64,000 nt of DNA. Origin: a plasmid. The position numbers were made by a program, and so were the translations under genes. This document shows, one piece after another, positions 7,651-61,809 of this stretch; the stretch's first letter is position 1; each line of letters starts with the position of its first letter. Location: the sequence record NZ_CP118109.1, one strand, 5' to 3'. The notes under the pieces were generated by a model that ran no database searches, was not told the DNA's origin, and saw nothing but the letters and a program-made list of their open reading frames with translations.

Positions 7651-7664
7651 AACATTGCATAATG

Positions 7665-7704
7665 TAAGACGTTACATTTTTCTGCCTGTAACGTCTTTTA
7701 TTAT
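7665..7704 (+). terminator. rho-independent terminator overlapping a variant of the recurrent palindrome
   Basis: stem taagacgttaca / tgtaacgtctt followed by ttattat. Confidence 0.6.
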
Positions 7705-7753
7705 GCTCAAAACATGCTATAATAGCTTATGTTACTGAATGGAGGCCCATACT

Positions 7754-8218
7754 ATGGAGCTTATGAAAGCTTATTTATATAATCAATTCCCTTTTCAAAC
7801 TACGGACATTTCTGCAAGAACGATTTCAAACCTGCTGACTTGCAATTGGTTTGAGGATGATCGAAAATCGGCAGCTTATACAATATTGCATCGAAGACTG
7901 TTAATCAGTTCACAGTGGTACAAGATTACATTACGCTTTAAAAAAGAAGGTCCTGAATTATTGTCATTAGATACGCCTGCCCCTTTTATGGTTGTTCTCA
8001 GTGAAGTGAAAGAGGCAGACAATAAAAATTCTCGTTTTGTAGATAAGCAGGTTTATCATTCTAAAACTGTTGGCACTGTATCAGGATACCTTGAGAAAGG
8101 TATACCTGCAGAGCTAATTGATGCAATGATTGAAGAGTTCAGGATCAGTGTGCAATACGGCATTCCTATGGTTGAAATCGCTTCTGCTAATAGTAAACTT
8201 TCAGAAATACCATTTTGA
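7754..8218 (+). CDS. hypothetical protein starting MELMKAY
   Basis: GGAGG 7 nt upstream of the second ATG; MELMxxY N-terminus. Confidence 0.5.
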   Translation: MELMKAYLYNQFPFQTTDISARTISNLLTCNWFEDDRKSAAYTILHRRLLISSQWYKITLRFKKEGPELLSLDTPAPFMVVLSEVKEADNKNSRFVDKQVYHSKTVGTVSGYLEKGIPAELIDAMIEEFRISVQYGIPMVEIASANSKLSEIPF

Positions 8219-8232
8219 GGAGGAGATTGATT

Positions 8233-12752: not shown

Positions 12753-12755
12753 TCT

Positions 12756-16674: not shown

Positions 16675-16702
16675 TTGATTTTAGCTTGTAACGTGTTATA
16701 AT
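16675..16702 (+). promoter_or_regulatory. sigma-A-type promoter TTGATT-16-TATAAT
   Basis: consensus-like hexamers; palindrome motif lies just downstream. Confidence 0.5.
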
Positions 16703-16705
16703 TCA

Positions 16706-16722
16706 AAATGTAATGCGTTACA
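16706..16722. promoter_or_regulatory. copy of recurrent palindrome AAATGTAATGCGTTACA
   Basis: direct read; embedded in a larger inverted repeat cttgtaacg...cgttacaag. Confidence 0.6.
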
Positions 16723-16750
16723 AGCTCATGCTAATAGGGGGCTAATAACG

Positions 16751-16969
16751 ATGACAGCAATGACAGTTGAAGATATGTATGCAATGAAACCAGTAGGCAG
16801 TGTGATTCCTTTCTTTAATTTCACCGGATATAAATCAGGTGATTCTGTGCAGGTGGCTGACGGCGCTTATGACTACGACAACAAGGTGTATGTCGTAGAA
16901 GGAAGCCGAATACAGCATATCTGGCATAATGAAGAGAATCAAATGGCATTTGAATTTGAAGGGATTTGA
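16751..16969 (+). CDS. hypothetical protein
   Basis: RBS aggggggct. Confidence 0.5.
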   Translation: MTAMTVEDMYAMKPVGSVIPFFNFTGYKSGDSVQVADGAYDYDNKVYVVEGSRIQHIWHNEENQMAFEFEGI

Positions 16970-17208: not shown

Positions 17209-18790
17209 TATAAGAATGTGGTGGCGGAAGAGAGACGCTTAGGTCTAAGGCAGATACGACTCGGTGAGCCCCGGCGCAATTCTCAGAGAGGCGGACTAGA
17301 AACCGCGCTGTAGAAACGTAGAGCCGGATTAGGGCCGTGGGAACCTGTAAGGGGAAGTCAGTTAGGCTGCTACCCGTGATGATGAAATGCTGCTATGCAA
17401 GGGAGAATGGCCCTTGCCCACATTCTTGCTCTCATTCAGCGCACAAGAGTACTGTCCCCCCGGTCTTGAGGACAGCGGCTTGCAACTGAAACCGGTAAAG
17501 GAGCCGACCTTGTGCGTTGAATGAGGGTCTTTTATTCACCCTTTTTTTCCCCTCATCTAAGAACTATAAAGGGTAGGTTATCTGATTTAGCCGTAGGAAG
17601 TCTGGAGTTATTCGTTAGTAGGTTTGTAGGCGCTGCAGAGCCGATCACTGAGGACGGTAGCCTGGATGGACTATTCAAAAATCAGACGACAGTATGCAAA
17701 AACTGACGTTACACAACAGCCAGGACCGAACCTGCAAAAAAGGCGATGAAGAGAGGCAAAAGATGGGCCCTCCGCGACAACCTAGGGGTGTGATGAGGGT
17801 TGTCATGATCATACTGGATGTGAGTCTGCCATGATAGCTTAATTGGGAAAGCGCATGACTGAGAATCATGAGATGCGGTTCAATTCCGATGTGGTGGCAT
17901 TCTAGTATGATTCACTTATGTAGGCGCACTGATGATCTTGTCCGGTTCCGCAAGCCACGCTGATGCGGGTAGACTGGTCTTGTATCGAATCTGAGAGAGT
18001 AAATAGTGGATTAGAAACGGGCGGCTTAAATGACCGGCAACGCGTGGCTTGCCGGCATCATAAGCTGGAGTGTTTCGGCTCCGTTTGCATCCCTTGCTTT
18101 GCGACAGCAGTTAGTCACACGAAACGCAGAACCCTTAGTGACTTTCAGTGCGCTACATAGATTTGTCCGGAATAGCTTAACGGTAGAGCGCTCGTATAAA
18201 CCCATACGAGAGATCAGAGGTTCGATTCCCGTTTCCGGCTTCTGCATTTAGCATACAAGTAAAGACCGTAGATCAGCCAGAGACCTCTGTATTATTTACT
18301 TGAAAAGGTGCGTTGTGTACGAAACTTTTCAAGTAAACAATATAGGCAAGTAGCGAAAGCTATTATAAGTCCAATTGTTTTCTGGTGCATGGATGCTTAA
18401 ATGGGATCAGGTGCAACAAGTGCCAATGGCAGGGTAGAAGACTCGAATCGGTTGCTTTAAGTTTCCGTTTATCGGATCGGATGGATGCTTGAACAGTAAT
18501 GTTCTTGATCGTGAAAAACACCTTTCATCCTATATGCTTAAAGACCTGCAGCTTGTATGTTAAATGGAGAAAGTTTGTGGGGCGGATTAAGTCTCAATGG
18601 ATTGGACGAGGGCGAAGCTTACTATTAATTTCAGGTAGGATCTTCAGGCATCGAGCAGTTGGGTGTCTGAAGACTATCTTTAAATCCTATATGCCGAAAG
18701 GCCAAGGCTTAATGACCCTAACGAAAACTTTCCGAGACTCACAGGTGATCTGCAGTCGGGTAAGCGGTAAAGACCGGCGTACATAATATA
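17209..18790 (+). ncRNA. about 1.6 kb ORF-free, GC-elevated, structure-rich region: candidate large non-coding RNA(s) with tRNA-like fragments
   Basis: only short both-strand overlapping ORFs without RBS; many GC hairpins; internal intrinsic terminator at 17523; tRNA-like D-arm TAGCTTAACGGTAGAGCG and GGTTCGATTCC T-loop near 18170-18245. Confidence 0.5.
17523..17551 (+). terminator. intrinsic terminator inside the non-coding region (likely 3' end of a roughly 330-nt RNA)
   Basis: gggtg-cttttattc-caccc followed by TTTTTTT, nested in atgaggg/ccctcat stem. Confidence 0.55.
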
Positions 18791-19436: not shown

Positions 19437-20270
19437 ATGATTAATAATATTGATGCCAGTGACTTAGACTCTCTCATAAGTCAGCTAAAAAACACTTTTT
19501 CATTTGGTGACTGGGATAAGATTATACTTTTAGCTGAAAAACTTATAGAGAAAACTAATGTTATTAATAATATAACGAAGATGACTGGTGTTAATTTTAA
19601 TCAAGCAGAGAGAAGCCTGGTTTATTATTATGGCTTCGCATATATGGCTATTGGATCAGCTTACGAACATAAGTGTGATTTCTCTAGGGCCAGAGAATGG
19701 GCTCTTAAATATAGGGACTGGTCTTCTGTTTCATCGCCAACTTCTGAGGATATCAGATGGATGAATCATTGGACTAAATTGTCTGAAATTAATGTGATTG
19801 TTGTCGATCTCCTTATGGGAAAAAATGAAGCTCTTGATCAAATTGCTGATTATATATTGGAGCATCCTGAAGATGCCCTAGCCGGATTAATCACAATGCT
19901 CGATGCTGCAAACAAAAATGATATAAATATTGATCATGTCCTTGCTCGTATTCCAGATGATTTCTGGCAGAACGATAAAAGCACAGGTGTTGTCAACATG
20001 TCTTATCAGTATAGATTTTTTCGCCAACTATCCCTTTACAAACAAAAATGTAATGAGTTACATTTTTGTTTAGAAAATCTCTTGCGCGCTTTATCATTAG
20101 CTGATAAAATGAAAAACGTAGATGACTTTAAGGAATGTATTCAAGTTTTTGAATCTCTTAAAGATCACGCCGACAAGCGTCAAGAGAAAAAATATAACCG
20201 GATAGTAAAGGGAGCGATTAGGCATGAAAAAGTTGTTTCTATCAGCATTGCTAACATTAGGGATTCTTAG
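19437..20270 (+). CDS. alpha-helical TPR-like receptor candidate (RRNPP/Rap-like)
   Basis: RBS gaggggagaatagaa; helical repeats such as YYYGFAYMAIGSAYEH...AREWALKY; 3' end overlaps a secreted pre-peptide gene. Confidence 0.5.
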   Translation: MINNIDASDLDSLISQLKNTFSFGDWDKIILLAEKLIEKTNVINNITKMTGVNFNQAERSLVYYYGFAYMAIGSAYEHKCDFSRAREWALKYRDWSSVSSPTSEDIRWMNHWTKLSEINVIVVDLLMGKNEALDQIADYILEHPEDALAGLITMLDAANKNDINIDHVLARIPDDFWQNDKSTGVVNMSYQYRFFRQLSLYKQKCNELHFCLENLLRALSLADKMKNVDDFKECIQVFESLKDHADKRQEKKYNRIVKGAIRHEKVVSISIANIRDS

Positions 20271-20437: not shown

Positions 20438-20474
20438 CATATTGGAATGCATTACATATAAGGAGGTTTTGTAG

Positions 20475-22599: not shown

Positions 22600-22691
22600 T
22601 AAAAATGCATCAAAATACTGACAGGTATTATCATGGTGAGGGCCGCCTTTGTGCGGCTTTTCCCATGTATATCATCATATGGGGGATTCCT

Positions 22692-23738
22692 ATGTCAAAT
22701 AAGGTATATAATGACTCATTGTATAACGAGGATGTGAAATTAAAGTTCCTAGAGTTAATGAAAAAGAATGGTTGTTCTGAAAATACATTAGTTACATATA
22801 AGCGAGTTTTTCTACGCGCATCTGGATTAGAAAAAAGATTTAAGACGGATCTGTATGATTTTACATTCGAATATATAGAAAAACTCTTAATCAAGATGAA
22901 TCATACAACATTAAACTCCGCAATAAGCAGCATTAGCATCATAAGAAGTTACATTGATTGGGCGATACAGAACAAGTACAGAAAGGTGCCTTTAAGCCCA
23001 CTGGACGTATTCACTACGAAGGAATTGGCCCAGCGATACAAGAACAAACGAGTAAGAGTATATTTTACACATGCTGAAGTGCAAAAGTTTGCAGATAGCG
23101 CTGTGAATGCGCAGGATAAGGCTCTCATTTGGGCAATGTTTCATGGTATATGTGGAAATGGGATGGCAGAACTAAGGAATCTTACGTTGTATGATATTGA
23201 TCAGCATAACTATAAATTGACTCTTAAGGACGATGATTCAGAGAGAGTTATTGAACTCATCTCAGATGAACAAAAAAAATTGATCGACCACCTTCTTAAA
23301 GCCCATGAGCAAACTCATTATCTAAAGGGAAACGGAAAGTCTGTTGCTAAAAACCCTATCGGTTTCTTAGCAAAAAATAACCATGTATTTAGGCCTATGA
23401 TTCGTGGAGACAGTTCTACTGCTTCTTATCATGTTTTAAGAAATAGACTTGTAGATATATCAAAAATCAACGAAGAGCCGCAACTAACTTCCCCTATTTC
23501 GTTAAGATATAGTGGGATGCTTTATATGGCTTATTGTGAATATCAAAAGCATGGGGCGTTGAGTCTTGAGTCCATAAAGAGAATTTCAGATTTCTATGCT
23601 ATCAGTAAAGTAACTGATTCCAAATATGACAACTTCTTTATTCGAAGAGAATTTTTAACCGAAGAAACGATCATAAAGGAATATCTCTCTGGAGACGAAG
23701 GAGAAGAAGACTATGGAGTTGATGCAAAGATATTTTGA
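22692..23738 (+). CDS. tyrosine-recombinase/integrase-like protein (tentative)
   Basis: N-terminal SAM-like segment TLNSAISSISIIRSYIDWAI; C-terminal SYHVLRNRLV (HxLR-like) and downstream Tyr; motifs weak. Confidence 0.4.
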   Translation: MSNKVYNDSLYNEDVKLKFLELMKKNGCSENTLVTYKRVFLRASGLEKRFKTDLYDFTFEYIEKLLIKMNHTTLNSAISSISIIRSYIDWAIQNKYRKVPLSPLDVFTTKELAQRYKNKRVRVYFTHAEVQKFADSAVNAQDKALIWAMFHGICGNGMAELRNLTLYDIDQHNYKLTLKDDDSERVIELISDEQKKLIDHLLKAHEQTHYLKGNGKSVAKNPIGFLAKNNHVFRPMIRGDSSTASYHVLRNRLVDISKINEEPQLTSPISLRYSGMLYMAYCEYQKHGALSLESIKRISDFYAISKVTDSKYDNFFIRREFLTEETIIKEYLSGDEGEEDYGVDAKIF

Positions 23739-25048: not shown

Positions 25049-26092
25049 TTAACGAAGCAATTGAAGAACTGCTTGTGGTTGTTGGTTTGCTTGAGCCAAC
25101 ATTGCTTGAGCTGCTTGGGAAAGAATCGAGTTCTTAGTTTGCTCAACCATTTCTTTCGCCATGTCAACGTCACGAATACGGGATTCAGATGCTGTCAGGT
25201 TCTCTGCTGTTGTACCCAGGTTATTTACTGTGTGCTCCAAACGGTTTTGTACGGAACCCAATTTAGAACGCTCAGCAGATACGCTCTCGATCGCTGCGTT
25301 AATTGTAGTGATTGCTGTATCAGCGTCTTCTTGGTTAGAAATGTTGATACCAGCGTTTACTTTTGCTTCATCAGCATATGCTTCGTCAACTTTGACAACC
25401 ATTTTGTCGCCATCGTAGTAACCAGCTACAACAACATCATCTTCGGTTGCCTTTCTAGTTGTACCATTACCACTGCCATCGTCAATGTCGTCTCCGACAT
25501 TAACTGCTTCTTTAAAAGTAAGTGTAGTTGTTCCGGCAGTCAAAGTTGCAGTAGTGCCATCGTTATCAGATGTGTACTCTGTGCTTACTTTCAGCGCTTC
25601 AGCGCCCATGTCACTAATTGAAAGACTAATGCTTTGACCTGCATTTGCTCCGATTTGGAATGTAACATTTTCAGCAGAACCATTGATCAGCTTTTTCGTA
25701 TTGAACTCAGTGTCTGTAGAGATACGAGTCAATTCTTCAGCTAATTGGTTTACTTCTTTTTGAAGCTCTGCGCGGTCGGAATCCGTGTTTGTGTCAGATG
25801 CTGATTGAACTGCCAGCTCACGCATACGTTGCAGGATAGAATGAGATTCATTCAATGCACCTTCAGCTGTCTGGATCAGTGAGATACCATCTTGAGCGTT
25901 ACGAGAAGCTTGCTCAAGACCGCGGATTTGTCCACGCATTTTTTCGGAGATTGCAAGACCCGCTGCGTCATCACCAGCACGGTTGATGCGAAGACCGGAA
26001 GACAATTTCTCCATGTTTTTTCCTTGTGCAGAGTTAGCTGCGCCCAGGCTGCGTTGAGTGTTAATCGCCGCAATGTTGTGATTGATAATCAT
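25049..26092 (-). CDS. hag: flagellin
   Basis: N-terminal [17 protein letters not shown]...[30 protein letters not shown] and C-terminal flagellin helices; RBS GGAGG. Confidence 0.9.
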
Positions 26093-26150: not shown

Positions 26151-26348
26151 TTAGAGCGGCAGTCCATTTTGTCTGCAGAGCTCTTTTTGTTCGTCTGACA
26201 AGATCTCTTCCCTGAGTATCTTAACGTCATTCGGAGCAGTTATTTCTAACTTTGGATTGCCGTAATCATCGACCTTCACTTTAATATGTATGGAATTGCC
26301 GATAATGATCGACTCACCCGCTCTTCTGTTGACTGTTAATTTTCCCAT
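26151..26348 (-). CDS. csrA: carbon storage regulator CsrA
   Basis: MGKLTVNRRAGESIIIGNSIHIKVKVDDYGNPKLEITAPNDVKILREEI; track ORF over-extended upstream. Confidence 0.75.
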   Translation of the reverse strand: MGKLTVNRRAGESIIIGNSIHIKVKVDDYGNPKLEITAPNDVKILREEILSDEQKELCRQNGLPL

Positions 26349-26382
26349 GCCGACTACCAACTTCCCTATTGTGATAGTTATT

Positions 26383-26409
26383 TTATCGGCGGGATCCGGA
26401 AATAGTTTA
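26383..26409 (-). promoter_or_regulatory. sigma-D (sigma-28) type promoter TAAA-N15-GCCGATAA driving csrA-hag
   Basis: minus-strand tggtaTAAActatttccggatcccGCCGATAAaa, close to B. subtilis sigma-D consensus TAAA-N15-GCCGATAT. Confidence 0.6.
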
Positions 26410-26445
26410 TACCATTTTAAAAAAATTTTATTGGAGCTGATAAAT

Positions 26446-26790
26446 ATGAAATATAACCCTACTCTACTCAACGTTTTTAATCTTAATAAATTTGATCCTC
26501 GTGAGTTAACGTATAGCGAAAAAATGCTGGTCGAGGAATATCTTGGCGAAATCTTAGAGGAACAATATTCCGGAGACATCCAAGAAATTATCCATTATCA
26601 AGATAAACGCATTACATTTAGCGAGGATTCTGAAGGCTTCAAACTGCCCCTAGCAAACGATCTACCACTTGAATATAACCTATGGAATATAAATAGTTTA
26701 TTCGCCTATGGAGAGGCTGATATGGAGCTTGTGGCGGTCTTAGAGAATCCCGAAAATACAATGAATCAGGTGATGGTTAGTATGTATTAA
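26446..26790 (+). CDS. hypothetical protein
   Basis: ATG with ggag 8 nt upstream; track ORF 26290 is over-extended. Confidence 0.5.
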   Translation: MKYNPTLLNVFNLNKFDPRELTYSEKMLVEEYLGEILEEQYSGDIQEIIHYQDKRITFSEDSEGFKLPLANDLPLEYNLWNINSLFAYGEADMELVAVLENPENTMNQVMVSMY

Positions 26791-27481: not shown

Positions 27482-28009
27482 ATGATTGGCCTGCTTAGAC
27501 AGCGACCTGCGTTAATTGTTGGATTTATTGTAAATAGCGATACCCACATTGAAGCTGTACGTAATTTATTTCCTGTCGAGTACCATAAAAGGATGATCTT
27601 TCTTTCGCTAAGCGCGCTTGATCTAACCGATAATATGAAGCGTTATGTAACCATGCTAGGCAATCTTACTCATCATTTAATTATTTGCCTAGATCCTGGC
27701 CAAATCGCTGATGCTCTTACTCCTGTATTTAAGGAGTGGGTGCCTTCTGCCGAAGAAGTTGTTCTCAACGTTCCTTTGCTCGAATGCGAAAAAGAATATT
27801 TGGGTCTTCAAATTTTTGAAGCATACCGTTTTTCTGTTTGTGAGAAGAAACGTGCTAAAGAATTAATACCCTGCATAAATTGTACCAAGATGACCTATAT
27901 TATCGACTCTAGCTGGAATGTGCCTTTATGTAGTGATGCATGCTTTGAAGAATGGGAATCGAATCATGCGAAGAAGCTGCGCTCAAAACGCCATAAGCAA
28001 AAATTATAA
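27482..28009 (+). CDS. hypothetical protein with C-terminal Cys cluster
   Basis: RBS cacgaggtgagg. Confidence 0.55.
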   Translation: MIGLLRQRPALIVGFIVNSDTHIEAVRNLFPVEYHKRMIFLSLSALDLTDNMKRYVTMLGNLTHHLIICLDPGQIADALTPVFKEWVPSAEEVVLNVPLLECEKEYLGLQIFEAYRFSVCEKKRAKELIPCINCTKMTYIIDSSWNVPLCSDACFEEWESNHAKKLRSKRHKQKL

Positions 28010-30897: not shown

Positions 30898-30916
30898 AAA
30901 TGTAATGCATTACAAT
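30898..30916. promoter_or_regulatory. orphan copy of palindrome AAATGTAATGCATTACAAT flanked by TATAAT boxes on both strands
   Basis: lies between convergent terminators; possible promoter for an sRNA or a 42-codon ORF. Confidence 0.5.
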
Positions 30917-31054
30917 ACATATAATTATTTCAGTGTATGAAAAATTCATAATAGAAAGACATCCAATGTTAAAAGAAGCAATCATGCCACATTCTACCTC
31001 TCGGCGTCAAACCTTTTTTAGCTGCCCCTCTCCCTTTGCCGCCTATCGGCGGAA

Positions 31055-33880: not shown

Positions 33881-33900
33881 ATAATGTAATGCATTACATT
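33881..33900. promoter_or_regulatory. palindrome TAATGTAATGCATTACATTT between a TATAAT box and the amidase RBS
   Basis: direct read. Confidence 0.6.
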
Positions 33901-33940
33901 TTTGATTATACTACTTATTTATCATAAATTCGACATGTCA

Positions 33941-39412: not shown

Positions 39413-39432
39413 AAATGTAATGCGTTACATTT
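39413..39432. promoter_or_regulatory. palindrome AAATGTAATGCGTTACATTT between TTTATAAT and RBS
   Basis: direct read. Confidence 0.6.
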
Positions 39433-39482: not shown

Positions 39483-39731
39483 TTAATTATCTCCGCTTAC
39501 TGCCTCTTCATCTTCGGTTGTGAGATCTGAATACATTTCTCGGTTGCATAAGACAATTTGATTAAAGAACTTACTGGGTACAATTAGATTTCCTGCAACA
39601 ACATAGTTATCTCGTTCAGTGATTTCTTTCAGTCTTAGTTCCAATGGAAAATGATTTAAGTTGTTCGAACAATCCAAGGTGGCAACTCCAGCAATCATAG
39701 TGTTCTCGTTAAAGTTCATCATCGTAGACAT
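39483..39731 (-). CDS. hypothetical protein
   Basis: ORF track. Confidence 0.4.
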   Translation of the reverse strand: MSTMMNFNENTMIAGVATLDCSNNLNHFPLELRLKEITERDNYVVAGNLIVPSKFFNQIVLCNREMYSDLTTEDEEAVSGDN

Positions 39732-41709: not shown

Positions 41710-41880
41710 TCATCTTCCTTGCTCTCCGTCTGCTGGCTTTCCACTGCCCAATTCCTTTTCGGACCGATCCTCATTCTCTTTGACATCTCCTTTCTTAGGT
41801 GCTAAATCTTCCGTGAATACACCACGACCTAGGTCTTCAATAATACGATATCCTCCCATGTTTTCACCACCATTCTCCAT
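41710..41880 (-). CDS. small protein MENGGENMGGYRIIEDLGRG... (57 aa)
   Basis: first ORF after palindrome/promoter; overlaps the track ORF 41322..41786 in another frame. Confidence 0.3.
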   Translation of the reverse strand: MENGGENMGGYRIIEDLGRGVFTEDLAPKKGDVKENEDRSEKELGSGKPADGEQGR

Positions 41881-41907: not shown

Positions 41908-41936
41908 AAAATGTAATGCGTTACGTTTTACATTAT
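41908..41936. promoter_or_regulatory. palindrome variant AAATGTAATGCGTTACG+TTTTACATT downstream of TGTTATAAT
   Basis: direct read. Confidence 0.55.
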
Positions 41937-41952: not shown

Positions 41953-41978
41953 AAAAAAAGAGGGGATTTCACCCCTCC
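41953..41978 (-). terminator. terminator after protease gene
   Basis: A-run then gagggg-atttca-cccctc. Confidence 0.6.
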
Positions 41979-41980
41979 TA

Positions 41981-42915: not shown

Positions 42916-42934
42916 ATTGTAACACGTTACATTT
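42916..42934. promoter_or_regulatory. palindrome variant ATTGTAACACGTTACATTTT
   Basis: direct read upstream of protease gene. Confidence 0.5.
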
Positions 42935-43302
42935 TACTTTTCAGTAGTTTGTGAAAAATCTATAAAGAGGTCTTGTTCTTTGATTTGATCCATATAAGCC
43001 TGGAGTTCTTCATCGGTAACAGCTATATATACTCCACATGATCGGTCGGTGATACTGCATTTTCTTCTTTCTTCAACTCTTACTCTTCCGGACATTGTCA
43101 TTTCTGTTAGTCTCGGATGAACCAGATTGCGATCCCATCCTTTTAAGAGGTCGGCCTCGTACATTTTAGCTGCAATTTCGTTAGCTGTTAAGCCATCTTC
43201 ATATTGAAGAAGAAAGCTATGTATGATGTTCTGACGAGTTGCTACATCCTGTTTAACCAGATCGAAAGACTCTTTGCGGGTGCTGCTTGTTATTGTTGAC
43301 AT
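42934..43302 (-). CDS. winged-helix DNA-binding protein (candidate regulator)
   Basis: LTANEIAAKMYE...VHPRLTEM pattern. Confidence 0.45.
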   Translation of the reverse strand: MSTITSSTRKESFDLVKQDVATRQNIIHSFLLQYEDGLTANEIAAKMYEADLLKGWDRNLVHPRLTEMTMSGRVRVEERRKCSITDRSCGVYIAVTDEELQAYMDQIKEQDLFIDFSQTTEK

Positions 43303-48133: not shown

Positions 48134-50445
48134 TCTTCAATTGTCAATGCGCGGCTGCGGAGATAGTAGCTCGTCTTGATTCCGTTCTCCCAAACAGCCA
48201 TATGCAAATCCAAAAGATCACTTGCTTTGATGTCTGGAGTTACATAAAGGTTGAAGCTTTGAGCCTGGTCAATATGTCTCGATCGAGCACCGGCCATCTT
48301 AATGCTAGCGTGTTGATCAATCAAGAACGCAGTCTTGTAATACCAAAGTGTATCGTTATTCAGATCCGGAGCAGGATTGGCCACTTTATACGTTGTCTTT
48401 TCTTCATAAGAAACAAGTTCGTAAATCGGATCAATGGTTGCTGTAGAGCCGGCAATAATGGATGTGGTACCATTTGGCGCTATTGCTATCAGGTTCGCAT
48501 TGCGGATACCGTATTTACGGATCTCACCGGCAAGCTCCGCCCACTCAGTGCTGTTGTATCCTCGATCGGTAAAGTAGTTCCCGTTTTGCCATTCGCTGCC
48601 TTCAAACTTCGGATAGGCTCCTTTTTCTTTGGCCAAATCCATACTTGTCTTAATCGCAAGGAAGTTGATTTTCTCATAGAGCTTGTCGTTATAATCAACA
48701 GCAGCATCGGATTCCCATCGAATCTTCAGCAGGGCAAGTAAGTGATGAAGACCAAATGTTCCTAGACCAACGGCACGATACTGGTTGTTTGTGTGCTGTG
48801 CCTGAAGCACTTCGATGTTGTTGATGTCGATAACGTTATCTAGCATCCGAATTTGGATTGGAACAAGGCGTTCTAGCACATTGTCCGGAACCGCTCTGGA
48901 TAGATTAATTGAGTTCAGGTTACATACAACAAAGTCACCTGGAATTTTAGTAATGATGATCCGTGTTTCTCCATCCTTAGTTACAAGCTCTTCGGACTCA
49001 ACTACTGTTGGAGATTGGTTTTGCATGATCTCTGTACAGAGGTTTGAAGAATATATCATGCCGTGAGCTTTATTCGGATTCGTCCGGTTTACTGTATCAC
49101 GGTAGAACATGAACGGCGTGCCTGTCTCAAGCTGGGACTTCATAATGCGCTTCATAACATCAATAGCTTGAACAGTAATACGTGGCAGCAGTGGGTTTGC
49201 TACAGCTTCAGCATATTTCTCACGGAACGCTCCGCTTCCAAGCTTCTCATCATAGAAGTCTTCTAAGCCCAATTTGCGCCCCTTCTCATCTGTCCAACCC
49301 ATAATACTCTTCACTTCGTGAGGGCAGAACAGGTGCCATTCTTCGCGCTCACGAACAGCTTCCATGAATAGATCCGGCAGACATACGGCGTGGAAGATGT
49401 CATGCGCTCTCATACGCTCGTCACCGTTGTTCAATTTAAGATCCAAGAAGGACAGAATATCTTTATGGAAAACATCCAGATAGACAGCTACAGCGCCTTT
49501 ACGAGTGCCAAGCTGGTCAACGCTGACTGCCGTATTGTTCAGCTGGCGGATCCAAGGGATAACGCCGGAACTTGTATTCTTGTGCCCGCGGATATCGGAG
49601 CCTCTGGAACGTACTTTTCCAAGGTATACACCGATACCGCCACCCATTTTGCTGAGACGTGCTACATCGGTATTGGAATCAAAGATACCTTCAAGAGAGT
49701 CGTCAACCGTATCAATGAAGCAGCTGGACAGCTGTCCGCCAGAAGCTTTACCTGCATTAGATAAAGTCGGTGTAGCCACTGTCATGTATAGGTTGCTCAT
49801 AGCCCAGTAAGATTCTTTAACTAGCTCGATTCGCTTCTCTGCAGGCTCCTGGTGCATCAAGAACATAGAAATAATCATATAGCGCTCTTGCGGCAGCTCC
49901 ATTACCTTACCGTCATAATCGCTAGTCAAGTAGCGTTCATTGAGTGTCATGAGGCCAATGTAGTCGAACAGCAGATCTCTTTCTGGAGCGATAGTAGCTT
50001 CAAGCTCTTCGATTTCTTCTTTGGTGTAAGCTTCTAATAGTTCTTTTCTGAATAGCTTCTTCTCGACCAATGTCGTGATCAAGCTGTAGAAGGATCCATA
50101 AGGCTTATCTGTATATGATTTATAATTACGATTGAAAGCTGCCTTTTTATATAAGGATGTTAAAAAGGAACGAGCAGCCGCAAACTTCCAATTCGGTTCT
50201 TCTTTCGAAATCAATTCCAATGCAGACATAGTAAATGCATTTGTAATCTCATCGGCGGTTACTTCTTTGTATCTAAGCTTAGATAATACGCCACGAATTA
50301 AGCGTTGAATATTCAGGGGTTCTCCCTGCGAATCTTTTAAGTCTGCCATGATGCGTTCTGCGAATGCTTGGATTCGGTTAACGTCAAATGCCAGTTCTCT
50401 ATTATTGGGCTTTGTAACCTTTAGCGGTGTTGCGCTCAATTTCAT
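48112..50445 (-). CDS. nrdE: ribonucleotide reductase class Ib large subunit
   Basis: 777 aa; ATP-cone-less N-terminus; between nrdI and nrdF. Confidence 0.9.
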   Translation of the reverse strand: MKLSATPLKVTKPNNRELAFDVNRIQAFAERIMADLKDSQGEPLNIQRLIRGVLSKLRYKEVTADEITNAFTMSALELISKEEPNWKFAAARSFLTSLYKKAAFNRNYKSYTDKPYGSFYSLITTLVEKKLFRKELLEAYTKEEIEELEATIAPERDLLFDYIGLMTLNERYLTSDYDGKVMELPQERYMIISMFLMHQEPAEKRIELVKESYWAMSNLYMTVATPTLSNAGKASGGQLSSCFIDTVDDSLEGIFDSNTDVARLSKMGGGIGVYLGKVRSRGSDIRGHKNTSSGVIPWIRQLNNTAVSVDQLGTRKGAVAVYLDVFHKDILSFLDLKLNNGDERMRAHDIFHAVCLPDLFMEAVREREEWHLFCPHEVKSIMGWTDEKGRKLGLEDFYDEKLGSGAFREKYAEAVANPLLPRITVQAIDVMKRIMKSQLETGTPFMFYRDTVNRTNPNKAHGMIYSSNLCTEIMQNQSPTVVESEELVTKDGETRIIITKIPGDFVVCNLNSINLSRAVPDNVLERLVPIQIRMLDNVIDINNIEVLQAQHTNNQYRAVGLGTFGLHHLLALLKIRWESDAAVDYNDKLYEKINFLAIKTSMDLAKEKGAYPKFEGSEWQNGNYFTDRGYNSTEWAELAGEIRKYGIRNANLIAIAPNGTTSIIAGSTATIDPIYELVSYEEKTTYKVANPAPDLNNDTLWYYKTAFLIDQHASIKMAGARSRHIDQAQSFNLYVTPDIKASDLLDLHMAVWENGIKTSYYLRSRALTIEECENCAS

Positions 50446-50743
50446 TCACCTCTTTTATAAATTTCTCAACAGAATCTGATGAGATATATGGAACAGCCTG
50501 GCTCAATTCATGAAGTTCTTCCCTGCTGTATCGGCCGATAATGCTGCACCCAACCATAAGATTATGGTTATGTATAAGAAAGTCAGATACTTCTTCGGGC
50601 ATTTTACCTGTTTCTTCGGTGCTTGTAATCAGCACATAGGGCTGCTGCATTCGAAGCGCAGGGCCGATCCTTACGGCATGCATTCCCGTTTTCTTAACGA
50701 AACTCTCTGCTTTGCCAGATAAAGAATAATAACTCAATAACAT
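50402..50743 (-). CDS. nrdI: NrdI flavodoxin-like protein
   Basis: MLLSYYSLSGKAESFVKK flavodoxin start; RBS ggaagg. Confidence 0.75.
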   Translation of the reverse strand: MLLSYYSLSGKAESFVKKTGMHAVRIGPALRMQQPYVLITSTEETGKMPEEVSDFLIHNHNLMVGCSIIGRYSREELHELSQAVPYISSDSVEKFIKEVNEIERNTAKGYKAQ

Positions 50744-50755
50744 GTGAAACCTTCC

Positions 50756-50777
50756 TTTTTGTAACGCATTACATTTA
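50756..50777. promoter_or_regulatory. palindrome TTTTTGTAACGCATTACATTTA upstream of nrd operon
   Basis: direct read. Confidence 0.55.
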
Positions 50778-50880
50778 TCGTGCAATAGTTATTGTATTCT
50801 ATATTTCTCTTCATTTAAAGTCTTGACATTCGAAAAACCCCAACATGTAGTGCTGAGGTCTTCCGAAATATACAAGGTTT

Positions 50881-51279: not shown

Positions 51280-51759
51280 TTATTGGTATAGGTTTGCTAC
51301 AAAGATTCCGTCTTCATCAGTCGGACGAATGACATATCGCTTTGCTTCTGCCCCTTTTTCATTTATCCATTTCACAAGTCCAGCACTGAAGCATTTAAAA
51401 CCGCTACCTTTGTTGTTACCTTTTATAGCTCTAAGACGCATGCCGTCTTCTGATTTTCTTAGTACGATTTGACGAGGGCTGCCTCTGAATCCAATCTGAA
51501 CCTTGTCACCTTCTTTAATCCCTAGAAGTGCGCCAGCCTCTTTATTAATATGGATTCCTCCAGATTTTTGAAAACCAATGCTTGGATCTTTGACATTGAT
51601 ACTATTGGAATACCACTCAACTTCTTTGCTCGGAATATCGCTCATCTTGATACCATACCTTTCCGCTTCTTCGGGCGTCACTTGCCTAGTCTGCAATCCT
51701 TGCTGAAAAGGGAGTTTACCTGGATCGCTCGGATTTTTCCGCGGCCTGCCTCTTGTCAT
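51280..51759 (-). CDS. hypothetical protein with GRPRK N-terminus
   Basis: ORF track. Confidence 0.5.
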   Translation of the reverse strand: MTRGRPRKNPSDPGKLPFQQGLQTRQVTPEEAERYGIKMSDIPSKEVEWYSNSINVKDPSIGFQKSGGIHINKEAGALLGIKEGDKVQIGFRGSPRQIVLRKSEDGMRLRAIKGNNKGSGFKCFSAGLVKWINEKGAEAKRYVIRPTDEDGIFVANLYQ

Positions 51760-51881: not shown

Positions 51882-52127
51882 ATTCATTCACCTTTCTTAA
51901 AATGTAATACATTTCATTTAGGTAATATTATGAAGGAAGGTGGTCTTCCAGTATGTTGAGTATTTGTTCGGCGTACTTACTACTCCATCTTTTTGGATAA
52001 AAATAGTCATACATCTCTTTAATTTCTCTATTGGAAAGAGTTAGCTGATAAAAGGGTTTATCAAGCCCTTCTTTCTGAACGATTTTTACGTCCAACTGCC
52101 CGCCTCCTCAGAAAAAAATCGCTTAAA

Positions 52128-52651: not shown

Positions 52652-52975
52652 TTAATATGGCGTTTGCTTGGTTGCATACCAGTCTGAGGCAAACAAATCC
52701 GCCTGAGCAGGAAGCCAGCCTGGCTGCCATTCATCCGTTTCGCCATTAAAAAATGCGATATACGGCTGCGAATTAAGAGGCGTATTTACACCAATATGTT
52801 TTGCTGTGCGATCGTTAACCTTCAAAAATGTACTAGCTGTACTAAAAGGCGGCAGATAAAGAGAAGGCATCATTACAATGAAGCTGCCAGGTGCCCAAGA
52901 ATCGCGTCTTAACTTTTCTTCTTTCTCTAAGAGCTCAAGTGCATGTCCGAATTTCATTTCTTCCCCTGCTTTCAT
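52652..52975 (-). CDS. hypothetical protein
   Basis: ORF track. Confidence 0.5.
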   Translation of the reverse strand: MKAGEEMKFGHALELLEKEEKLRRDSWAPGSFIVMMPSLYLPPFSTASTFLKVNDRTAKHIGVNTPLNSQPYIAFFNGETDEWQPGWLPAQADLFASDWYATKQTPY

Positions 52976-58568: not shown

Positions 58569-58742
58569 AGCTGCTCCTTCCATACGGCTTATCTCTCTCC
58601 CGTGTAATACCTGCGAGTGTTCGTAAGCATTACACAGGGAGAGATCCCTGTGTGTTGTGTGTTGGGTGAAGTTGAGGTTCGAGCAGGGTCCTAAGCTGCC
58701 CCTTACAAGGTGCGTATAAAAACACAACCCTCTAAGGGACGC
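58569..58742. other. GC-rich structured intergenic element with about 20-bp imperfect hairpin and split palindrome half-sites
   Basis: atctctctcccgtgtaatac ... gtaagcattacacagggagagat; CA-rich tract. Confidence 0.4.
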
Positions 58743-59840
58743 TTAGGCCTTTTTCTCTTCCTCTGCTTTTTTATTCAACTCTTTATTAAAGAGAGGACAT
58801 TTATCTTTATCGCATACGCCGCTCAGTCTAGCAAAAGCTTCACAGCCGTATCGGTATTGTCCGTTATAAACTGAGTTCACAATAGTTTCGATATCTCTTC
58901 TGTTCAATCGAGGCATGCAGTTCTCTTCGCCCCATATGAGCATCCGCGCCATTGCTTCATCTCGTTCCATTCCTTGCTGCATATAGAAGCTGGTAAGTGC
59001 AGTCCCAGAGTTATTACGCTCGTCCACAGTTTCTTTAAATGTACGCTCAAGCATGGTCTGAATGCATGGCGGCAGAGTTTCTAGCTTGCGAATCTTCCCT
59101 TGGTATTCCTTTGCTTTTATATTCCGTTCGGTCCATTTTTGGATGTACCGATCAAGGGATAACTTAGCTCTATTTGATGTTACCAGTGGAGCAGGTTGAA
59201 GGAATCTCGGTTCTTTTGCCAGTTCCTTAATTTGTTCTAGTGTACAAGTGCGAAGCTCCTGCTGCGTTATGGGTATCTTATAATGACCACCCTTCTTATT
59301 GAAGGAGTTGACCATTCGAAACATGCGCTTATCATCGTATATTGCTGTATCCATTGTTCCAAACAGTGTGTACTTCGCGATATCAAGTGCAATCTCACGG
59401 TAGATTTGATTCAGGGATACGTGCGGATTTAGCCCAAGCACATGTCCGCTGACAGTCAAGTGAATCCCTTTGTGTCCCGAATAAAATACATTGATCTGAT
59501 CAGGCTCGATTGAAAGAATATGCTTAAGATAACGAAAGGCAATATGCACGTCATACTTTAATTTGGTGTAATCCTCTTCTGTCTCTAATGGCTTATCAAA
59601 GTCCAGATAAAGATCGCCCCATTTCAGAGCATCCCTTGCATTCAATACCCATTTCCCTTTTTCATTTTGAAAGAACTCAGGGTTAATGTATTGCATTACA
59701 GTCTCATAGACGCCTATGTTGTTGTAGTAATTCCGAAACTTGATGGTCTCGGAAGGATGCATATAATGCTTTCGTGTAAATGGAAACTTTTCCGAATTGG
59801 TGTCCGCTCCGCATTCCACAAAAAGCTGGAACTCATTCAC
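58743..59840 (-). CDS. archaeo-eukaryotic-type primase-polymerase (AEP/PrimPol) with C-terminal Cys motif
   Basis: LYLDFD (DxD), SGHKGIHL (SGxGxH), YDDKRMFRMVNSFN motif III. Confidence 0.7.
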   Translation of the reverse strand: MNEFQLFVECGADTNSEKFPFTRKHYMHPSETIKFRNYYNNIGVYETVMQYINPEFFQNEKGKWVLNARDALKWGDLYLDFDKPLETEEDYTKLKYDVHIAFRYLKHILSIEPDQINVFYSGHKGIHLTVSGHVLGLNPHVSLNQIYREIALDIAKYTLFGTMDTAIYDDKRMFRMVNSFNKKGGHYKIPITQQELRTCTLEQIKELAKEPRFLQPAPLVTSNRAKLSLDRYIQKWTERNIKAKEYQGKIRKLETLPPCIQTMLERTFKETVDERNNSGTALTSFYMQQGMERDEAMARMLIWGEENCMPRLNRRDIETIVNSVYNGQYRYGCEAFARLSGVCDKDKCPLFNKELNKKAEEEKKA

Positions 59841-60523
59841 TGTGCGATCACCTGTTTTCGAATCACTCGGTTAATCCCATGTATCTGATGAATATTCTTC
59901 TTTTGTGATATCGTCTCTCTAGCTTCATCTACATATTTCTCAATATCAAAAGCGTTTCGAAGAAGGCTCCGTTGCCAGCTTAAGCGAATGCGCTTTGCTT
60001 CATCGATGGCAAACAGGATTTCGTCCAGATCATAGATGCCGAGTAAGTAATTAAATTTTCCTTCATCCTGCTTAATCATATGAGGATTGCTCTGAATGTT
60101 CATCTTTTCATACCAGTACTCAAGCAGTTCTTCCATCGTAAAGCGTTTCTTCATCTCCAAGAAGAACGGCTCCACTTCTTGAATATATTTGCCGTCCGGT
60201 CCTTTACGCATCTTAGGCGCAGGAGAAGTTTCCCTCAGCCGGTTGTGATAGTAGAAGATATCCGGATTCATGATATTCTTCGGTGGTTTCTTTGTGGCGA
60301 AAATCTCTTCAAGCATATAAATTCGTTTGACCATATCCGGGTAATCTTGGGCAAACTTCTCGATCTCTGCTTGAATCTCTTCCAGCTCCCATCCATCCTT
60401 AACTAATTTCTGAATAGATGATATGTTAGTCCGGATACGAGAGTCGGCATTCTGTATCGGAATACCGACTATCGTGCATACGAACCATCCTGAGAGCTGA
60501 TAAATCAACCCATCTCGATTCAT
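59837..60523 (-). CDS. hypothetical protein
   Basis: ORF track. Confidence 0.5.
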   Translation of the reverse strand: MNRDGLIYQLSGWFVCTIVGIPIQNADSRIRTNISSIQKLVKDGWELEEIQAEIEKFAQDYPDMVKRIYMLEEIFATKKPPKNIMNPDIFYYHNRLRETSPAPKMRKGPDGKYIQEVEPFFLEMKKRFTMEELLEYWYEKMNIQSNPHMIKQDEGKFNYLLGIYDLDEILFAIDEAKRIRLSWQRSLLRNAFDIEKYVDEARETISQKKNIHQIHGINRVIRKQVIAQ

Positions 60524-61725
60524 TAGGCGGCAAACTTCTCCAAGAAGATATTAAATTCAGCTAAATTCCCCGGAGTTAAATCGCCTGGAACTGCATCCTC
60601 TTTCTTCAAGAACTCTCTGAGTAAAGGAAGCATGTCGTTATCGGTTTGTATATTGAGCCTTGCCTTGTGCTGATGTATCTTTTGTATCTCAACCTGATCC
60701 CATTGCGGCGGAATAGCACTTTGCTGCGGAGCACTCTGTGCCTCAGTTTGAACCGGCGCGCCAACTGGTTTAGCTTCAGCCTTGAATGCTTGCGGCGTTG
60801 CTTCCGCTTGAGGGGTCGCTTGGAACGACTGCTCTTTAGCAGCTTCTGGTTGCTTGTTCGGCAGATTGCGCTGATCCCAAGCAATGGCTTCTGGTGTGTT
60901 TGGCTCATGAGGATTAAATGGATATTGATCTTCATGAAGCTCTGGCGCTACATTAAAATTTCCGTTAGCCTCGTTATTTACATCTACAGCCCAGTTCGTT
61001 TGCTGTTGTGGTGCGCCCCACTGTCCGTTAAAGCCACCTTGCTGTTGTTGTGAAAACTGCTGCTGCTGTTCAGGCGTAGGTTGGAAATAAGCTTGCTGTT
61101 GCTGTTGTTGATACGGATCAGTATAAGGCTGTCCGAAGCTTTGCTGAGGCTGAGCATAAGTTTCTTGCGGCTGCTGGAACCCACCTTGCGGTTGGTGTTG
61201 GAATTGATACTGTCCGCTTTGCTGCATTTGATCATAAGCGTTTTGTTCCTCATCAGCATCCGTTTCGACTTTAATTTTGGAATAGATAGACTCGCCTACG
61301 CCAAAGAGTGATGCCGCTTTTACTAAGACATTAGAAGCAGCTGCCTTATAAGCACTGTCTTGATTATCCTTGCCGCCGACAGCAATTTTGCAACCATATT
61401 GCTCACGCTGGCCAAGTCCGGGAATGAACAGGAAGCCGCGAGCGTGATAAACATATCCATCAAAGGACCATGTCTTGGAATCCTTATCATACTTGTAGAC
61501 TTCTTCTCTCCAATTATCAATCAAGCCGAAGTCCCAATACGTATATCCTGACACAGCGTTATCTAAAATTTGGCGAACGGTGTTTACGCCCATATACTTA
61601 CTTGCAGGTTTCTTTCCGCTCCCCGGTTTGGTTTCTAGCCATTCGTCCTTACATTCCTTCAAAGACTCACGGATCTTTTTGATCTGATCCATGTCCGGAA
61701 GGTATTTCTCAATTGTAGGTCTCAT
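60523..61725 (-). CDS. Rad52/22-family single-strand annealing protein with long Q/P-rich C-terminal region
   Basis: SKYMGVNTVRQILDNAVSGYTYW and AYKAAASNVLVKAASLFGVGESIY resemble Rad52 N-domain; RBS caggaggc. Confidence 0.65.
   Translation of the reverse strand: MRPTIEKYLPDMDQIKKIRESLKECKDEWLETKPGSGKKPASKYMGVNTVRQILDNAVSGYTYWDFGLIDNWREEVYKYDKDSKTWSFDGYVYHARGFLFIPGLGQREQYGCKIAVGGKDNQDSAYKAAASNVLVKAASLFGVGESIYSKIKVETDADEEQNAYDQMQQSGQYQFQHQPQGGFQQPQETYAQPQQSFGQPYTDPYQQQQQQAYFQPTPEQQQQFSQQQQGGFNGQWGAPQQQTNWAVDVNNEANGNFNVAPELHEDQYPFNPHEPNTPEAIAWDQRNLPNKQPEAAKEQSFQATPQAEATPQAFKAEAKPVGAPVQTEAQSAPQQSAIPPQWDQVEIQKIHQHKARLNIQTDNDMLPLLREFLKKEDAVPGDLTPGNLAEFNIFLEKFAA
60950..61240 (-). repeat. CAG/CAA-rich low-complexity coding tract (poly-Q/P)
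   Basis: direct read. Confidence 0.7.
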
Positions 61726-61789
61726 AGACGCCTCCTGTATACTGACTGCTTTCTTATTATATTCTTCAACAGATGCCGAAGCAACACCT

Positions 61790-61809
61790 AAATGTAATGC
61801 GTTACATTT
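61790..61809. promoter_or_regulatory. palindrome AAATGTAATGCGTTACATTT upstream of SSAP operon
   Basis: direct read. Confidence 0.6.

Follow-up and report, generated by a model that had tools for sequence, protein, structure and literature searches.

A recurrent palindrome at the promoters of a Paenibacillus phage-plasmid is a candidate shared operator of PadR-type shape

The window, a 64,000-nucleotide stretch (NZ_CP118109.1), derives from a jumbo phage-plasmid, a 215-kb plasmid of Paenibacillus urinalis. It carries a short palindrome at operon after operon, which raises the question of what the palindrome does there and which protein might recognize it. The initial annotation took it for an operator over the transcription start, bound by a dimeric regulator of a replication and nucleotide-metabolism regulon, and named three proteins encoded in the window as possible binders.

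The window was scanned for the 20-mer AAATGTAAYGCRTTACATTT with up to three mismatches allowed, and the expectation was taken from shuffled sequence. Eleven matches were obtained against 0.03 expected, starting at 7660, 16706, 20046, 30898, 33882, 39413, 41909, 42915, 50757, 51900, and 61790, while the core TGTAAYNNRTTACA at up to one mismatch was found 16 times against 0.5 expected. Recurrence at many operons is thus real, and the copy coordinates first given were correct to within 1 nt. Also present were a variant that had been listed at 2347 (core 2343 to 2356), a so-called half-site at 20444 (core 20443 to 20456), and a split copy in the element at 58569 to 58742, with half-sites at 58599 to 58638. 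Two copies were missing from the original list, one with a single mismatch at 20046 to 20065 and a degenerate one at 16687 to 16700, the right half of which is the TATAAT of the promoter carrying the 16706 copy. Two other cores, at 21310 and 59687, are intragenic and look like chance matches. In most transcription units of the plasmid and its relatives, the palindrome, 14 to 20 bp long, lies on or just past the −10 box (Table 1).

Table 1. Palindrome copies and candidate binding proteins in the window (L handles denote related loci)
Position	Strand	Feature	Setting	Copies in relatives
2340..2359	+	Weak variant (TGTAACACATTACT)	5' of gene 2389-3066	
7660..7679	+	Variant copy	3' of gene 7138-7650; right arm doubles as left arm of a terminator-like hairpin (AAGACGTTACA / TGTAACGTCTT), as read from the sequence itself	
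16684..16725	+	Pair of adjacent copies, 22 bp apart	Upstream of 72-aa gene 16751-16969; first core (16687-16700) overlaps TATAAT, second copy (16706-16725) 6 nt past TATAAT	
20046..20065		1-mismatch copy	Inside or at end of ORF 19437-20270; by our reading, apparently embedded in a palindrome with ~14-bp arms	
20440..20459	+	Copy with degenerate left half (TGGAATGCATTACA)	Directly before RBS of 75-aa gene, the first of the cluster containing the MrpR homologue	Conserved in Paenibacillus sp. TCA20
22605..23738	+	MrpR/YopR homologue	MrpR/YopR is the recombinase-like master repressor of SPbeta	
30898..30917	+	Copy	4 nt past TATAAT; small unit flanked by two convergent terminators; followed by a 52-aa ORF or small RNA	
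33882..33901	− (operon)	Copy	6 nt past TATAAT; heads N-acetylmuramoyl-L-alanine amidase operon	
39413..39432	−	Perfect copy	TTGATT-17-TATAAT-5 nt-motif-RBS (RBS within 5-60 nt after motif); heads Cas4-like / RemA-like / PolIII-alpha operon	L003, L005, L006, L007, L008; 1-mismatch copy in P. rhizovicinus
39483..39731	−	p82, 82-aa protein of unrecognized fold	Closes the operon in which the phage sigma factor is encoded; candidate binder by phyletic pattern only	
41909..41928	20-mer on +	1-mismatch copy	After terminator and TATAAT; heads p154 / RusA / sigma / p82 operon	L001, L002, L003
42915..42934		Copy	Right half is the extended −10 box (TGTAACGTGTTACAAT) of the S8 protease gene, scored as TG-extended TACAAT; adjoins the 122-aa winged-helix gene at its stop codon	Same arrangement in L001, L002, L003, L005, L008
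42934..43302	−	122-aa winged-helix protein	PadR-like by Foldseek; only window protein of a fold suited to the site	
50757..50776		Copy	Directly 5' of the RBS of nrdI, first gene of the nrdIEF operon	P. rhizovicinus 200551
51900..51919		Degenerate copy (TGAAATGTATTACA on − strand)	5' of 159-aa gene 51280-51759	
58599..58638	−	Split copy: TGTGTAATGC, 16 nt, GTATTACACG	Within a long hairpin (stem of apparently ~15 bp, by our reading) 5' of DnaB-like helicase gene	
61790..61809	−	Perfect copy	TTGATT-17-TATCAT-5 nt-motif (RBS within 5-60 nt after); heads operon opening with an unannotated 398-aa protein	

A perfect TATAAT ends 0 to 9 nt upstream of five of the eight exact copies in the window, where the background frequency is 1.3% (binomial p = 2e-8), and the same placement was found at 5/12 sites in P. 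rhizovicinus (p = 7e-10) and 11/19 sites in other relatives. These spacing statistics, together with the RBS downstream, bear out the placement between −10 boxes and RBSs that was first described. It was also confirmed that the ORF track over-extends genes through the motif, for example at 50402 to 50785 and 60523 to 61821. Intrinsic terminators lie ahead of the promoters at ~41958 to 41979 and at 39469 to 39498. The SSAP label given to the gene after the 61790 copy was not confirmed by any Pfam or PHROG match.

The complete 229-kb relative from P. rhizovicinus (NZ_CP048288.1) contains 12 exact copies, compared with a calculated expectation of ~0.05, and comparison with the annotation tables placed 11 of the 12 between genes. 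At orthologous promoters, the arms TGTAA/TTACA were invariant among relatives with a GC content of 32 to 51% and a PolIII identity of 54 to 78%. Over the relatives, the constant part of the site is TGT-N8-ACA only, with differences in the flanks and in the centre (YRYR). In one relative, L208, all three orthologous promoters were without the motif and showed only half-site remnants, despite retention of the promoters and neighboring genes. This apparent natural loss of the palindrome was counted in favor of the operator reading.

We infer, with a probability of roughly 0.6, that the palindrome is a shared DNA operator through which a repressor controls most operons of the phage-plasmid; for the binder itself, candidates are put forward below. 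The enrichment, promoter placement, arm conservation, and identity of shape with the PadR operator are observed features; repression and the nature of the binder are inferred. Each transcription unit would consist of a terminator, a sigma-A-type promoter, the operator, and an RBS, with the operator 1 to 8 nt past the −10 box, covering ~+1 to +14, or overlapping the −10 box. A dimeric, sequence-specific repressor bound at this position would keep RNA polymerase from binding, from forming an open complex, or from escaping the promoter, such that a single protein could silence most operons together and its removal could release them together. Coordinated silencing and release of this kind is a requirement of a plasmid-prophage. 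What stands of the original proposal is a motif that behaves as a DNA operator on the transcription start or −10 box of sigma-A-type promoters and is shared by many operons. The regulon of replication and nucleotide metabolism was drawn too narrowly, since copies are also carried by the amidase (lysis) operon and, in P. rhizovicinus, by intergenic gaps of the virion-gene arm.

The shape of the site points to a family of regulators. Canonical PadR-family sites have ATGT and ACAT spaced ~8 nt apart (PMC3506622, PMC5050560), and the same spacing, ATGT-N8-ACAT, is found in the window consensus. Judged by sequence, the site is built like a PadR-family operator, TG-N10-CA being equivalent to ATGT-N8-ACAT. 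The padC operator of B. subtilis, 5'-AACATGTAAATAGTTACATGAT-3', is recognized as CNTGNA-N6-TNCANG (PMC5728393). PadR contacts C6, T8, G9, A11, T18, C20, A21, and G23, and the window site was found to match T8, G9, T10, A11, T17, T18, C20, and A21. The C6/G23 pair, the most important base for B. subtilis PadR, substitution of which costs 19- to 38-fold in affinity (PMC5728393), is A/T in the window, and the C6 equivalent is not C in P. rhizovicinus or the other relatives, which counts against the PadR reading. No canonical PadR gene was recognized in the window or in the P. rhizovicinus element, which encode only the PadR-like winged-helix protein and a replication terminator protein (RTP), respectively. 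The same palindrome (TGTAATGCATTACA) was found in SPbeta over the −10 box of the promoter of yopM (the repressor operon), in the aimP-yopM intergenic region only, and no published binder for it was found. Tentatively, the binder may be a PadR-family protein supplied by the host. A bolder and more doubtful extension is that the giant phage-plasmids of Paenibacillus and Bacillus, and the repressor-operon promoter of SPbeta, are wired to a host PadR-family sensor of small molecules or stress as a master switch, in which case induction would follow a chemical cue, e.g., phenolic acids, rather than DNA damage.

A phage-encoded repressor is the next candidate to be weighed. The distribution of p82 follows that of the motif, in that its profile matched all motif-bearing PolIII relatives sampled (the window, L001, L002/P. 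rhizovicinus, L003 to L008, L010, and L190) and had no match in L208, the sole motif-losing relative; p82 is also the sole otherwise-universal gene of a 12-kb syntenic block that L208 lacks. Nevertheless, we regard it as an unlikely repressor. The co-occurrence depends on one negative genome. For p82, neither a Pfam or PDB sequence match nor a recognizable DNA-binding domain was found, and its single-sequence model is poor (pLDDT 55), so that DNA binding by p82 is pure conjecture. Moreover, a profile search found no p82 homologue in SPbeta, which has the palindrome, and a p82 repressor would not explain why the site has a PadR-type shape. The odds that some other, unseen phage protein is the binder are similarly low.

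The prospects of the three proteins originally named are poorer still. The 122-aa winged-helix protein would be a PadR-like dimeric repressor acting on ATGT-N8-ACAT and would also control the S8 promoter adjoining its own stop codon. In its confident model (pLDDT 89.7), a winged helix stands between an N-terminal and a C-terminal helix, and the best PDB matches by Foldseek were PadR-like regulators (5h20, 1xma, 3elk, 5zhc, 4esb, and LmrR). The family has a conserved “V-H-P-R-L-x-E-L...G” stretch that, by our reading, resembles the PadR recognition helix, and the window copies are exact ATGT-N8-ACAT sites (PMC3506622). However, the phyletic pattern is wrong, as the family was absent from the complete P. 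rhizovicinus element with its 12 exact sites and present in the motif-less L208, making this protein an improbable binder. The HTH protein at 29744 to 30352 (202 aa) is not conserved: of the loci tested, L003 and L006 alone have homologues, and the complete relative has none. The sigma-like protein at 39719 to 40498 matched a PHROG sigma-factor family, has a C-terminal HTH, and by our reading appears to contain region 2- and region 4-like sequence; it is a real sigma factor rather than a dimeric palindrome binder and is retained in L208.

Equally improbable is an element acting in RNA, either as a 5'-terminal mRNA hairpin that stabilizes the transcript or as a target of an RNA-binding regulator. 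The commonest gap between the −10 box and the motif is 5 to 6 nt, which would put the 5' end of the transcript on the first bases of the palindrome and makes a 5'-terminal hairpin possible at those promoters, and window copies extend to 8-bp stems (AAATGTAA/TTACATTT) of up to −8.7 kcal/mol. At some promoters, however, the gap is only 1 to 3 nt or the two elements overlap, and the left arm would therefore not be transcribed; at the S8-protease promoter, the right arm itself is the −10 box (TGTGTTACAAT) in five relatives. This overlap argues that the motif acts on DNA and not as an mRNA hairpin. The predicted hairpins are AU-rich, weak, and variable (0 to −8.7 kcal/mol; median, ~−4 kcal/mol), and the flanks that lengthen the stems are not conserved in the relatives. 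Conservation is of arm sequence, without compensatory changes: the single-arm changes CGTAAY, TGAAAT, and TGGAAT break the pairing and were never compensated. No Rfam match was found at the palindrome copies, nor was the stable stem, wholly in the transcript and with conserved pairing, that characterizes an mRNA-stabilizing hairpin. The motif also does not behave as an intrinsic terminator, since its copies are not among the terminator-like sites, which precede promoters, and longer stems followed by T runs were seen only for the copies at 7660 to 7700 and 20040 to 20072.

It is very unlikely that the palindrome is bound by the MrpR homologue of the window in a system of the SPbeta type. This protein matched PF22822 (MrpR_N_CB, 2e-23) and PF22823 (MrpR_C_cat, 3e-14), both above cutoffs, and is 28% identical to YopR. 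In SPbeta, MrpR binds the repeated element SPBRE at ten promoters, where SPBRE occupies either the −35/−10 spacer or the interval from the −10 box to the RBS (PMC10516654), a placement like that of the palindrome, and other MrpR-bearing phage loci have dispersed palindromes of their own. SPBRE (~AAATACAAAWAATATGTATA) is nevertheless a different sequence, and the copies from the ten MrpR target promoters (~ACAAATACAAAWAATATGTATA) did not resemble the palindrome. At the yopM promoter of SPbeta, the palindrome and SPBRE stand side by side, and only SPBRE is the MrpR ChAP-seq motif (PMC10516654). Among 52 MrpR loci, none was a motif-rich viral contig. The MrpR homologue was disfavored as the binder, since tblastn (E <= 1e-3) found none in the complete P. 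rhizovicinus element, which is rich in motif copies.

Least likely of all, the palindromes would be Ter-like sites at which an RTP homologue forms barriers to replication forks or transcription. RTP belongs to the PadR clan, and P. rhizovicinus, L005, L006, and contig 3300025530 encode homologues (PF02334, 5e-44). None was found in the window or L003, however, the promoter association is unlike that of fork traps, and the half-sites in the symmetric site of the RTP-DNA structure are 1 bp wider apart (TG-N11-CA). The RTP core half-site ATGTAC, from the B. subtilis Ter consensus KMACTAANWNNWCTATGTACYAAATNTTC (PMC3317982), resembles ATGTAA of the palindrome, but the full consensus had no match in the window, where two weak 3-mismatch core matches (41795 and 18835) lie away from the palindrome. 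RTP autoregulates its gene through a promoter Ter site (PMC10331603). There are GAACAT/ATGTTC repeats near the P. rhizovicinus rtp gene and a Ter-like core ~100 bp upstream of the L006 gene, and RTP thus appears to have its own sites.

Among known systems, the padC operator of PadR shares with the phage-plasmid site the arms TGTAA/TTACA and the 4-nt centre, which match 5'-CATGTAAATAGTTACATG-3', a dyad symmetry fit for a winged-helix dimer, and a promoter position suited to repression. The phage-plasmid site differs in missing the C6/G23 pair and in being present in at least 12 copies on one replicon, against one or two at a detoxification operon. In the SPBRE/MrpR system, a large temperate phage likewise has a short repeat at about ten promoters under one master repressor, a homologue of which is encoded in the window, but the SPBRE sequence is unrelated and MrpR is absent from the palindrome-rich relative. 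RTP-Ter of B. subtilis offers a winged-helix dimer of the PadR clan, an ATGTAC-like half-site, and homologues in some family members, whereas its spacing and sequence differ, the window is without RTP, and the phage-plasmid sites are promoter associated with no fork-trap layout. In the phage-plasmid P1, one repressor controls many scattered promoters through dispersed C1 operators, and in the plasmid-prophage GIL01, host LexA with gp7 is the master repressor. The proteins and sites are different there (asymmetric 17-mers in P1, LexA boxes in GIL01), and nothing in the analysis links the palindrome to the SOS response; nevertheless, both systems place the scattered promoters of a plasmid-prophage under one repressor, and GIL01 provides a precedent for a repressor supplied by the host.

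The recurrent palindrome reported in the initial annotation was borne out by counting. In the window, the 20-mer AAATGTAAYGCRTTACATTT was matched 11 times at ≤3 mismatches, against 0.03 expected, and its core TGTAAYNNRTTACA 16 times at ≤1 mismatch, against 0.5 expected. The copy coordinates proved accurate to within 1 nt; two copies had been overlooked (see table). The cores at 21310 and 59687, both intragenic, are probably chance matches. The copy described as split is real and lies within a long hairpin, which carries one palindrome half per arm with the halves 16 nt apart; it may be an insertion-disrupted operator or a distinct RNA element. The second repeat family of the window, TTACGTTAAAAATTTTTAACGTAA, was considered as a dispersed operator and rejected, being composed of origin iterons.

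The window is part of a plasmid of Paenibacillus urinalis (214,846 bp); its MrpR-like protein is 100% identical to one encoded there. Because of this plasmid match, and because a complete relative from P. rhizovicinus (NZ_CP048288.1, 228,841 bp, linear) carries ParM alongside genes for capsid, terminase and tail, the element is a jumbo phage-plasmid. Genes run on the plus strand to ~30.8 kb and on the minus strand from ~31.1 kb, and include those for replication (primases, helicases, sliding clamp, PolIII alpha), nucleotide metabolism (NrdIEF, thymidylate kinase, a MazG-like enzyme) and nucleases (RusA, Cas4-like, PD-(D/E)XK), as well as an S8 protease, an amidase, a holin and a virion protein. 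No phage match came from a Megablast of 18 kb, and no plasmid match from one of 6 kb. Relatives were represented by loci fetched for their PolIII, at 54 to 78% identity.

Despite GC contents of 32 to 51%, TGTAA-N4-TTACA was the commonest palindrome in these PolIII relatives, with copies at orthologous promoters. The P. rhizovicinus element held 12 exact and 31 near copies, with ~0.05 exact copies expected by calculation; judged against the annotation tables, 11 of the 12 were intergenic, and some copies lay in the virion-gene arm. Scanning viral contigs for the exact 14-mer recovered a family of 80- to 230-kb contigs with several matches each. The exact 20-mer was not found in the viral contigs. 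At orthologous sites the arms were invariant and the centre (YRYR) and flanks varied; window flanks are A/T, those of P. rhizovicinus mostly G/C. Phage 0305phi8-36 has a 21-bp promoter motif (PMC2147016) that was considered as kin and proved unrelated, and no good copy of the palindrome was present in two 50-kb stretches of that phage (100 to 200 kb of genome).

On the strand of the gene that follows, most copies came after a -10 box and ahead of an RBS; those at 39413 and 61790 read TTGATT-17-TATAAT/TATCAT-5 nt-motif. Intrinsic terminators lay directly upstream of the 41909 and 39413 promoters, so that the order within each unit is terminator, promoter, palindrome, RBS. A perfect TATAAT ended 0 to 9 nt upstream of five of the eight exact window copies (background 1.3%, p = 2e-8), of 5/12 P. 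rhizovicinus copies (background 0.4%, p = 7e-10) and of 11/19 copies in other relatives. In the S8-protease promoter an extended -10 box (TGTAAYGTGTTACAAT) is formed by the motif's right arm itself, an arrangement kept in five relatives. The motif also serves as a handy marker of promoters and true start codons in annotating such genomes.

An alternative would be action at the RNA level, as an mRNA hairpin. This is unlikely, since in several cases the motif overlaps the -10 box or trails it by just 1 to 3 nt, the stems are predicted to be weak (0 to -8.7 kcal/mol), single-arm variants occur without compensation, and conservation is of sequence, not merely of pairing. For these four reasons the palindrome was read as a DNA operator. 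It would cover the transcription start or the -10 box, where a symmetric dimer could block RNA polymerase, and we infer repression through it. The mechanism first proposed, a dimeric regulator on an operator over the transcription start, was right in outline, but its regulon of replication and nucleotide-metabolism genes was drawn too narrowly, given the copies in the P. rhizovicinus virion-gene arm.

The site fits ATGT-N8-ACAT, the canonical PadR-family operator (PMC3506622, PMC5050560). The B. subtilis padC operator, 5'-AACATGTAAATAGTTACATGAT-3', has the same arms and spacing; PadR recognizes it as CNTGNA-N6-TNCANG (PMC5728393). The pair that matters most to PadR, C6/G23, is missing from the palindrome, so that a paralogue would be expected to bind it in place of PadR itself. 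In phage SPbeta the same palindrome, TGTAATGCATTACA, labeled just "palindrome" in NC_001884, overlaps the -10 box (TACAAT) of the yopM (sro operon) promoter and adjoins an SPBRE, the repeated element of the phage's master repressor; a degenerate copy, TGAAATGCATTACA, lies 84 bp upstream. Both fit a PadR-type operator. The SPbeta palindrome is single copy in most loci closest to SPbeta, the literature found assigned it no binder, and the exact palindrome sequences gave no full-text literature match. Of the CcpA cre, LexA, Fur/Zur, Rex, TnrA, WalR, PlcR, parS and AraR sites, none is known to share both half-site and spacing; cre is the closest, yet has CG at its centre. Overall, a real, promoter-associated, family-wide operator of PadR type is the favored reading, with a probability of roughly 0.6.

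As to what binds this operator, a host PadR-family protein is a tentative choice, and the site's identity with the PadR operator and with the SPbeta palindrome makes a concrete, cheap hypothesis of PadR-family proteins acting on this site and the SPbeta one alike. At the BLAST level, SPbeta and the P. rhizovicinus element had no DNA-binding protein in common. The candidates encoded by the phage itself were narrowed by a natural experiment. L208, a locus on a 203,740-bp contig of GCA_037033165.1, shows full synteny between nrdE and PolIII and retains the winged-helix, sigma factor, RemA-like, p154, Cas4-like and S8 genes, but contains no motif copies; all three of its orthologous promoters still have their TATAAT, with the motif reduced to half-site remnants. 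Since L208 keeps these proteins yet has no motif, none of them suffices to maintain it. The sole otherwise universal gene absent from its syntenic block encodes p82, an 82-aa protein whose family profile matched every motif-bearing relative sampled and had no match in L208 or SPbeta. No domain was detectable in p82, and its single-sequence structure model was poor and unusable. That p82 is the binder is rather doubtful: it is no more than a lead, drawn from a single negative genome. Some other phage protein is equally doubtful.

The three binders initially put forward fared poorly. The winged-helix protein, retained in L208, is improbable; the sigma-like protein, also retained there, matched a PHROG sigma-factor family, and the 202-aa HTH protein occurred, among the tested loci, only in L003 and L006. 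Two further proteins, the RemA-like one, considered for its universality, and p154, were dropped on their retention in L208; RemA is not known as a palindrome binder. The MrpR homologue had pointed to an SPBRE-like system (PMC10516654), but SPBRE differs in sequence from the palindrome and the complete, motif-rich P. rhizovicinus element has no MrpR; it was rejected as a universal binder and is very improbable as the binder here. Paenibacillus sp. TCA20 encodes the homologue too, at 75% identity. Three phage loci with MrpR homologues (L024, L062 and L064) carry a dispersed palindrome of their own, TGAAA-N6-TTTCA, at 3 to 7 copies per 20 kb, mostly directly before the RBS. MrpR/YopR is the master repressor of SPbeta and has a tyrosine-recombinase fold. 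Least probable is the replication terminator protein (RTP), found in the P. rhizovicinus element (PF02334, 5e-44) but absent from the window and apparently served by its own GAACAT/ATGTTC-type, Ter-like sites.

In the database, RTP homologues are also encoded on chromosomes of Paenibacillus, Brevibacillus, Fontibacillus and other genera, and RTP on phage-plasmids bears on the origin of this narrowly distributed system. The window also encodes flagellin beside a CsrA-domain protein, to which a syntenic TCA20 contig (L077) adds FliS; we take this trio to resemble the host FliW-CsrA-flagellin regulatory module.

Coordinates of features in the window and, where named, in other loci
Feature	Position	Strand	Remarks
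C-terminal end of ~336-aa protein	29-304	+	cut by window start; ArsR/MarR-type winged helix and coiled coil; kept just upstream of primase gene in P. rhizovicinus (RS33315) and locus L090
Overlooked degenerate copy	16687-16700		overlaps TATAAT of promoter bearing 16706 copy
tRNA-Leu(GAG) gene	17827-17898	+	ARAGORN and Rfam
Second tRNA-like match	18166-18240	+	Rfam only, 36.9 bits
Overlooked copy	20046-20065		1 mismatch
MrpR/YopR homologue	22605-23738	+	both Pfam MrpR domains above cut-offs; no adjoining YopQ/DndB-like partner
Flagellin gene, complete	25049-26092	-	
CsrA-domain protein	26151-26579	-	
Plasmid replication origin (very probable)	28240-28500		five or six palindromic iterons TTACGTTAAAAATTTTTAACGTAA; DnaA boxes (TTATCCACA)
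Replication initiator	28509-29501	-	HTH and DnaA_N; adjoins iterons
Tiny unit	30888-31091		between two convergent terminators; TATAAT, palindrome, then 52-aa ORF or possibly small RNA
RemA-like protein (PF04025)	38234-38530	-	between Cas4-like nuclease and PolIII alpha; position kept in every relative, including L208
p82	39483-39731	-	small ORF after sigma gene
Sigma-like protein	39719-40498		sigma regions 2 and 4 by sequence reading; C-terminal HTH
p154	41322-41786		no recognizable domain
Winged-helix protein	42934-43302		
Tad2-like (Thoeris anti-defence 2) domain protein	52652-52975	-	Pfam 7.6e-17
Hairpin with split copy	58599-58638	-	stem read as ~15 bp; upstream of DnaB-like helicase gene
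Promoters with half-site remnants	L208 6290-9400		
SPbeta pair TGAAATGCATTACA, TGTAATGCATTACA	L022 (SPbeta) 27773-27786, 27857-27870; NC_001884 77773, 77857		aimP-yopM intergenic region
RTP, full length (RS33555)	L203 (P. rhizovicinus) 29893-30273		jumbo phage-plasmid, near rep gene
RTP, full length	L005 20803-21198		jumbo phage-plasmid, near rep gene
RTP, full length	L006 14879-15349		jumbo phage-plasmid, near rep gene; Ter-like core ~100 bp upstream

A single palindrome-binding protein, should it control most promoters on a 215-kb phage-plasmid, would offer a handle on carriage versus lytic growth. The jumbo phages concerned are a poorly known group, and the binder would aid their understanding and control; the case would be distinctly more interesting if the repressor were a host sensor. 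In SPbeta, binding by a PadR-family protein could supply the well-studied arbitrium/MrpR switch with an input from the host. Dispersed operators under a master repressor occur in P1 and GIL01 as well. They were already known from SPbeta, and the palindrome would be a further case of that kind.
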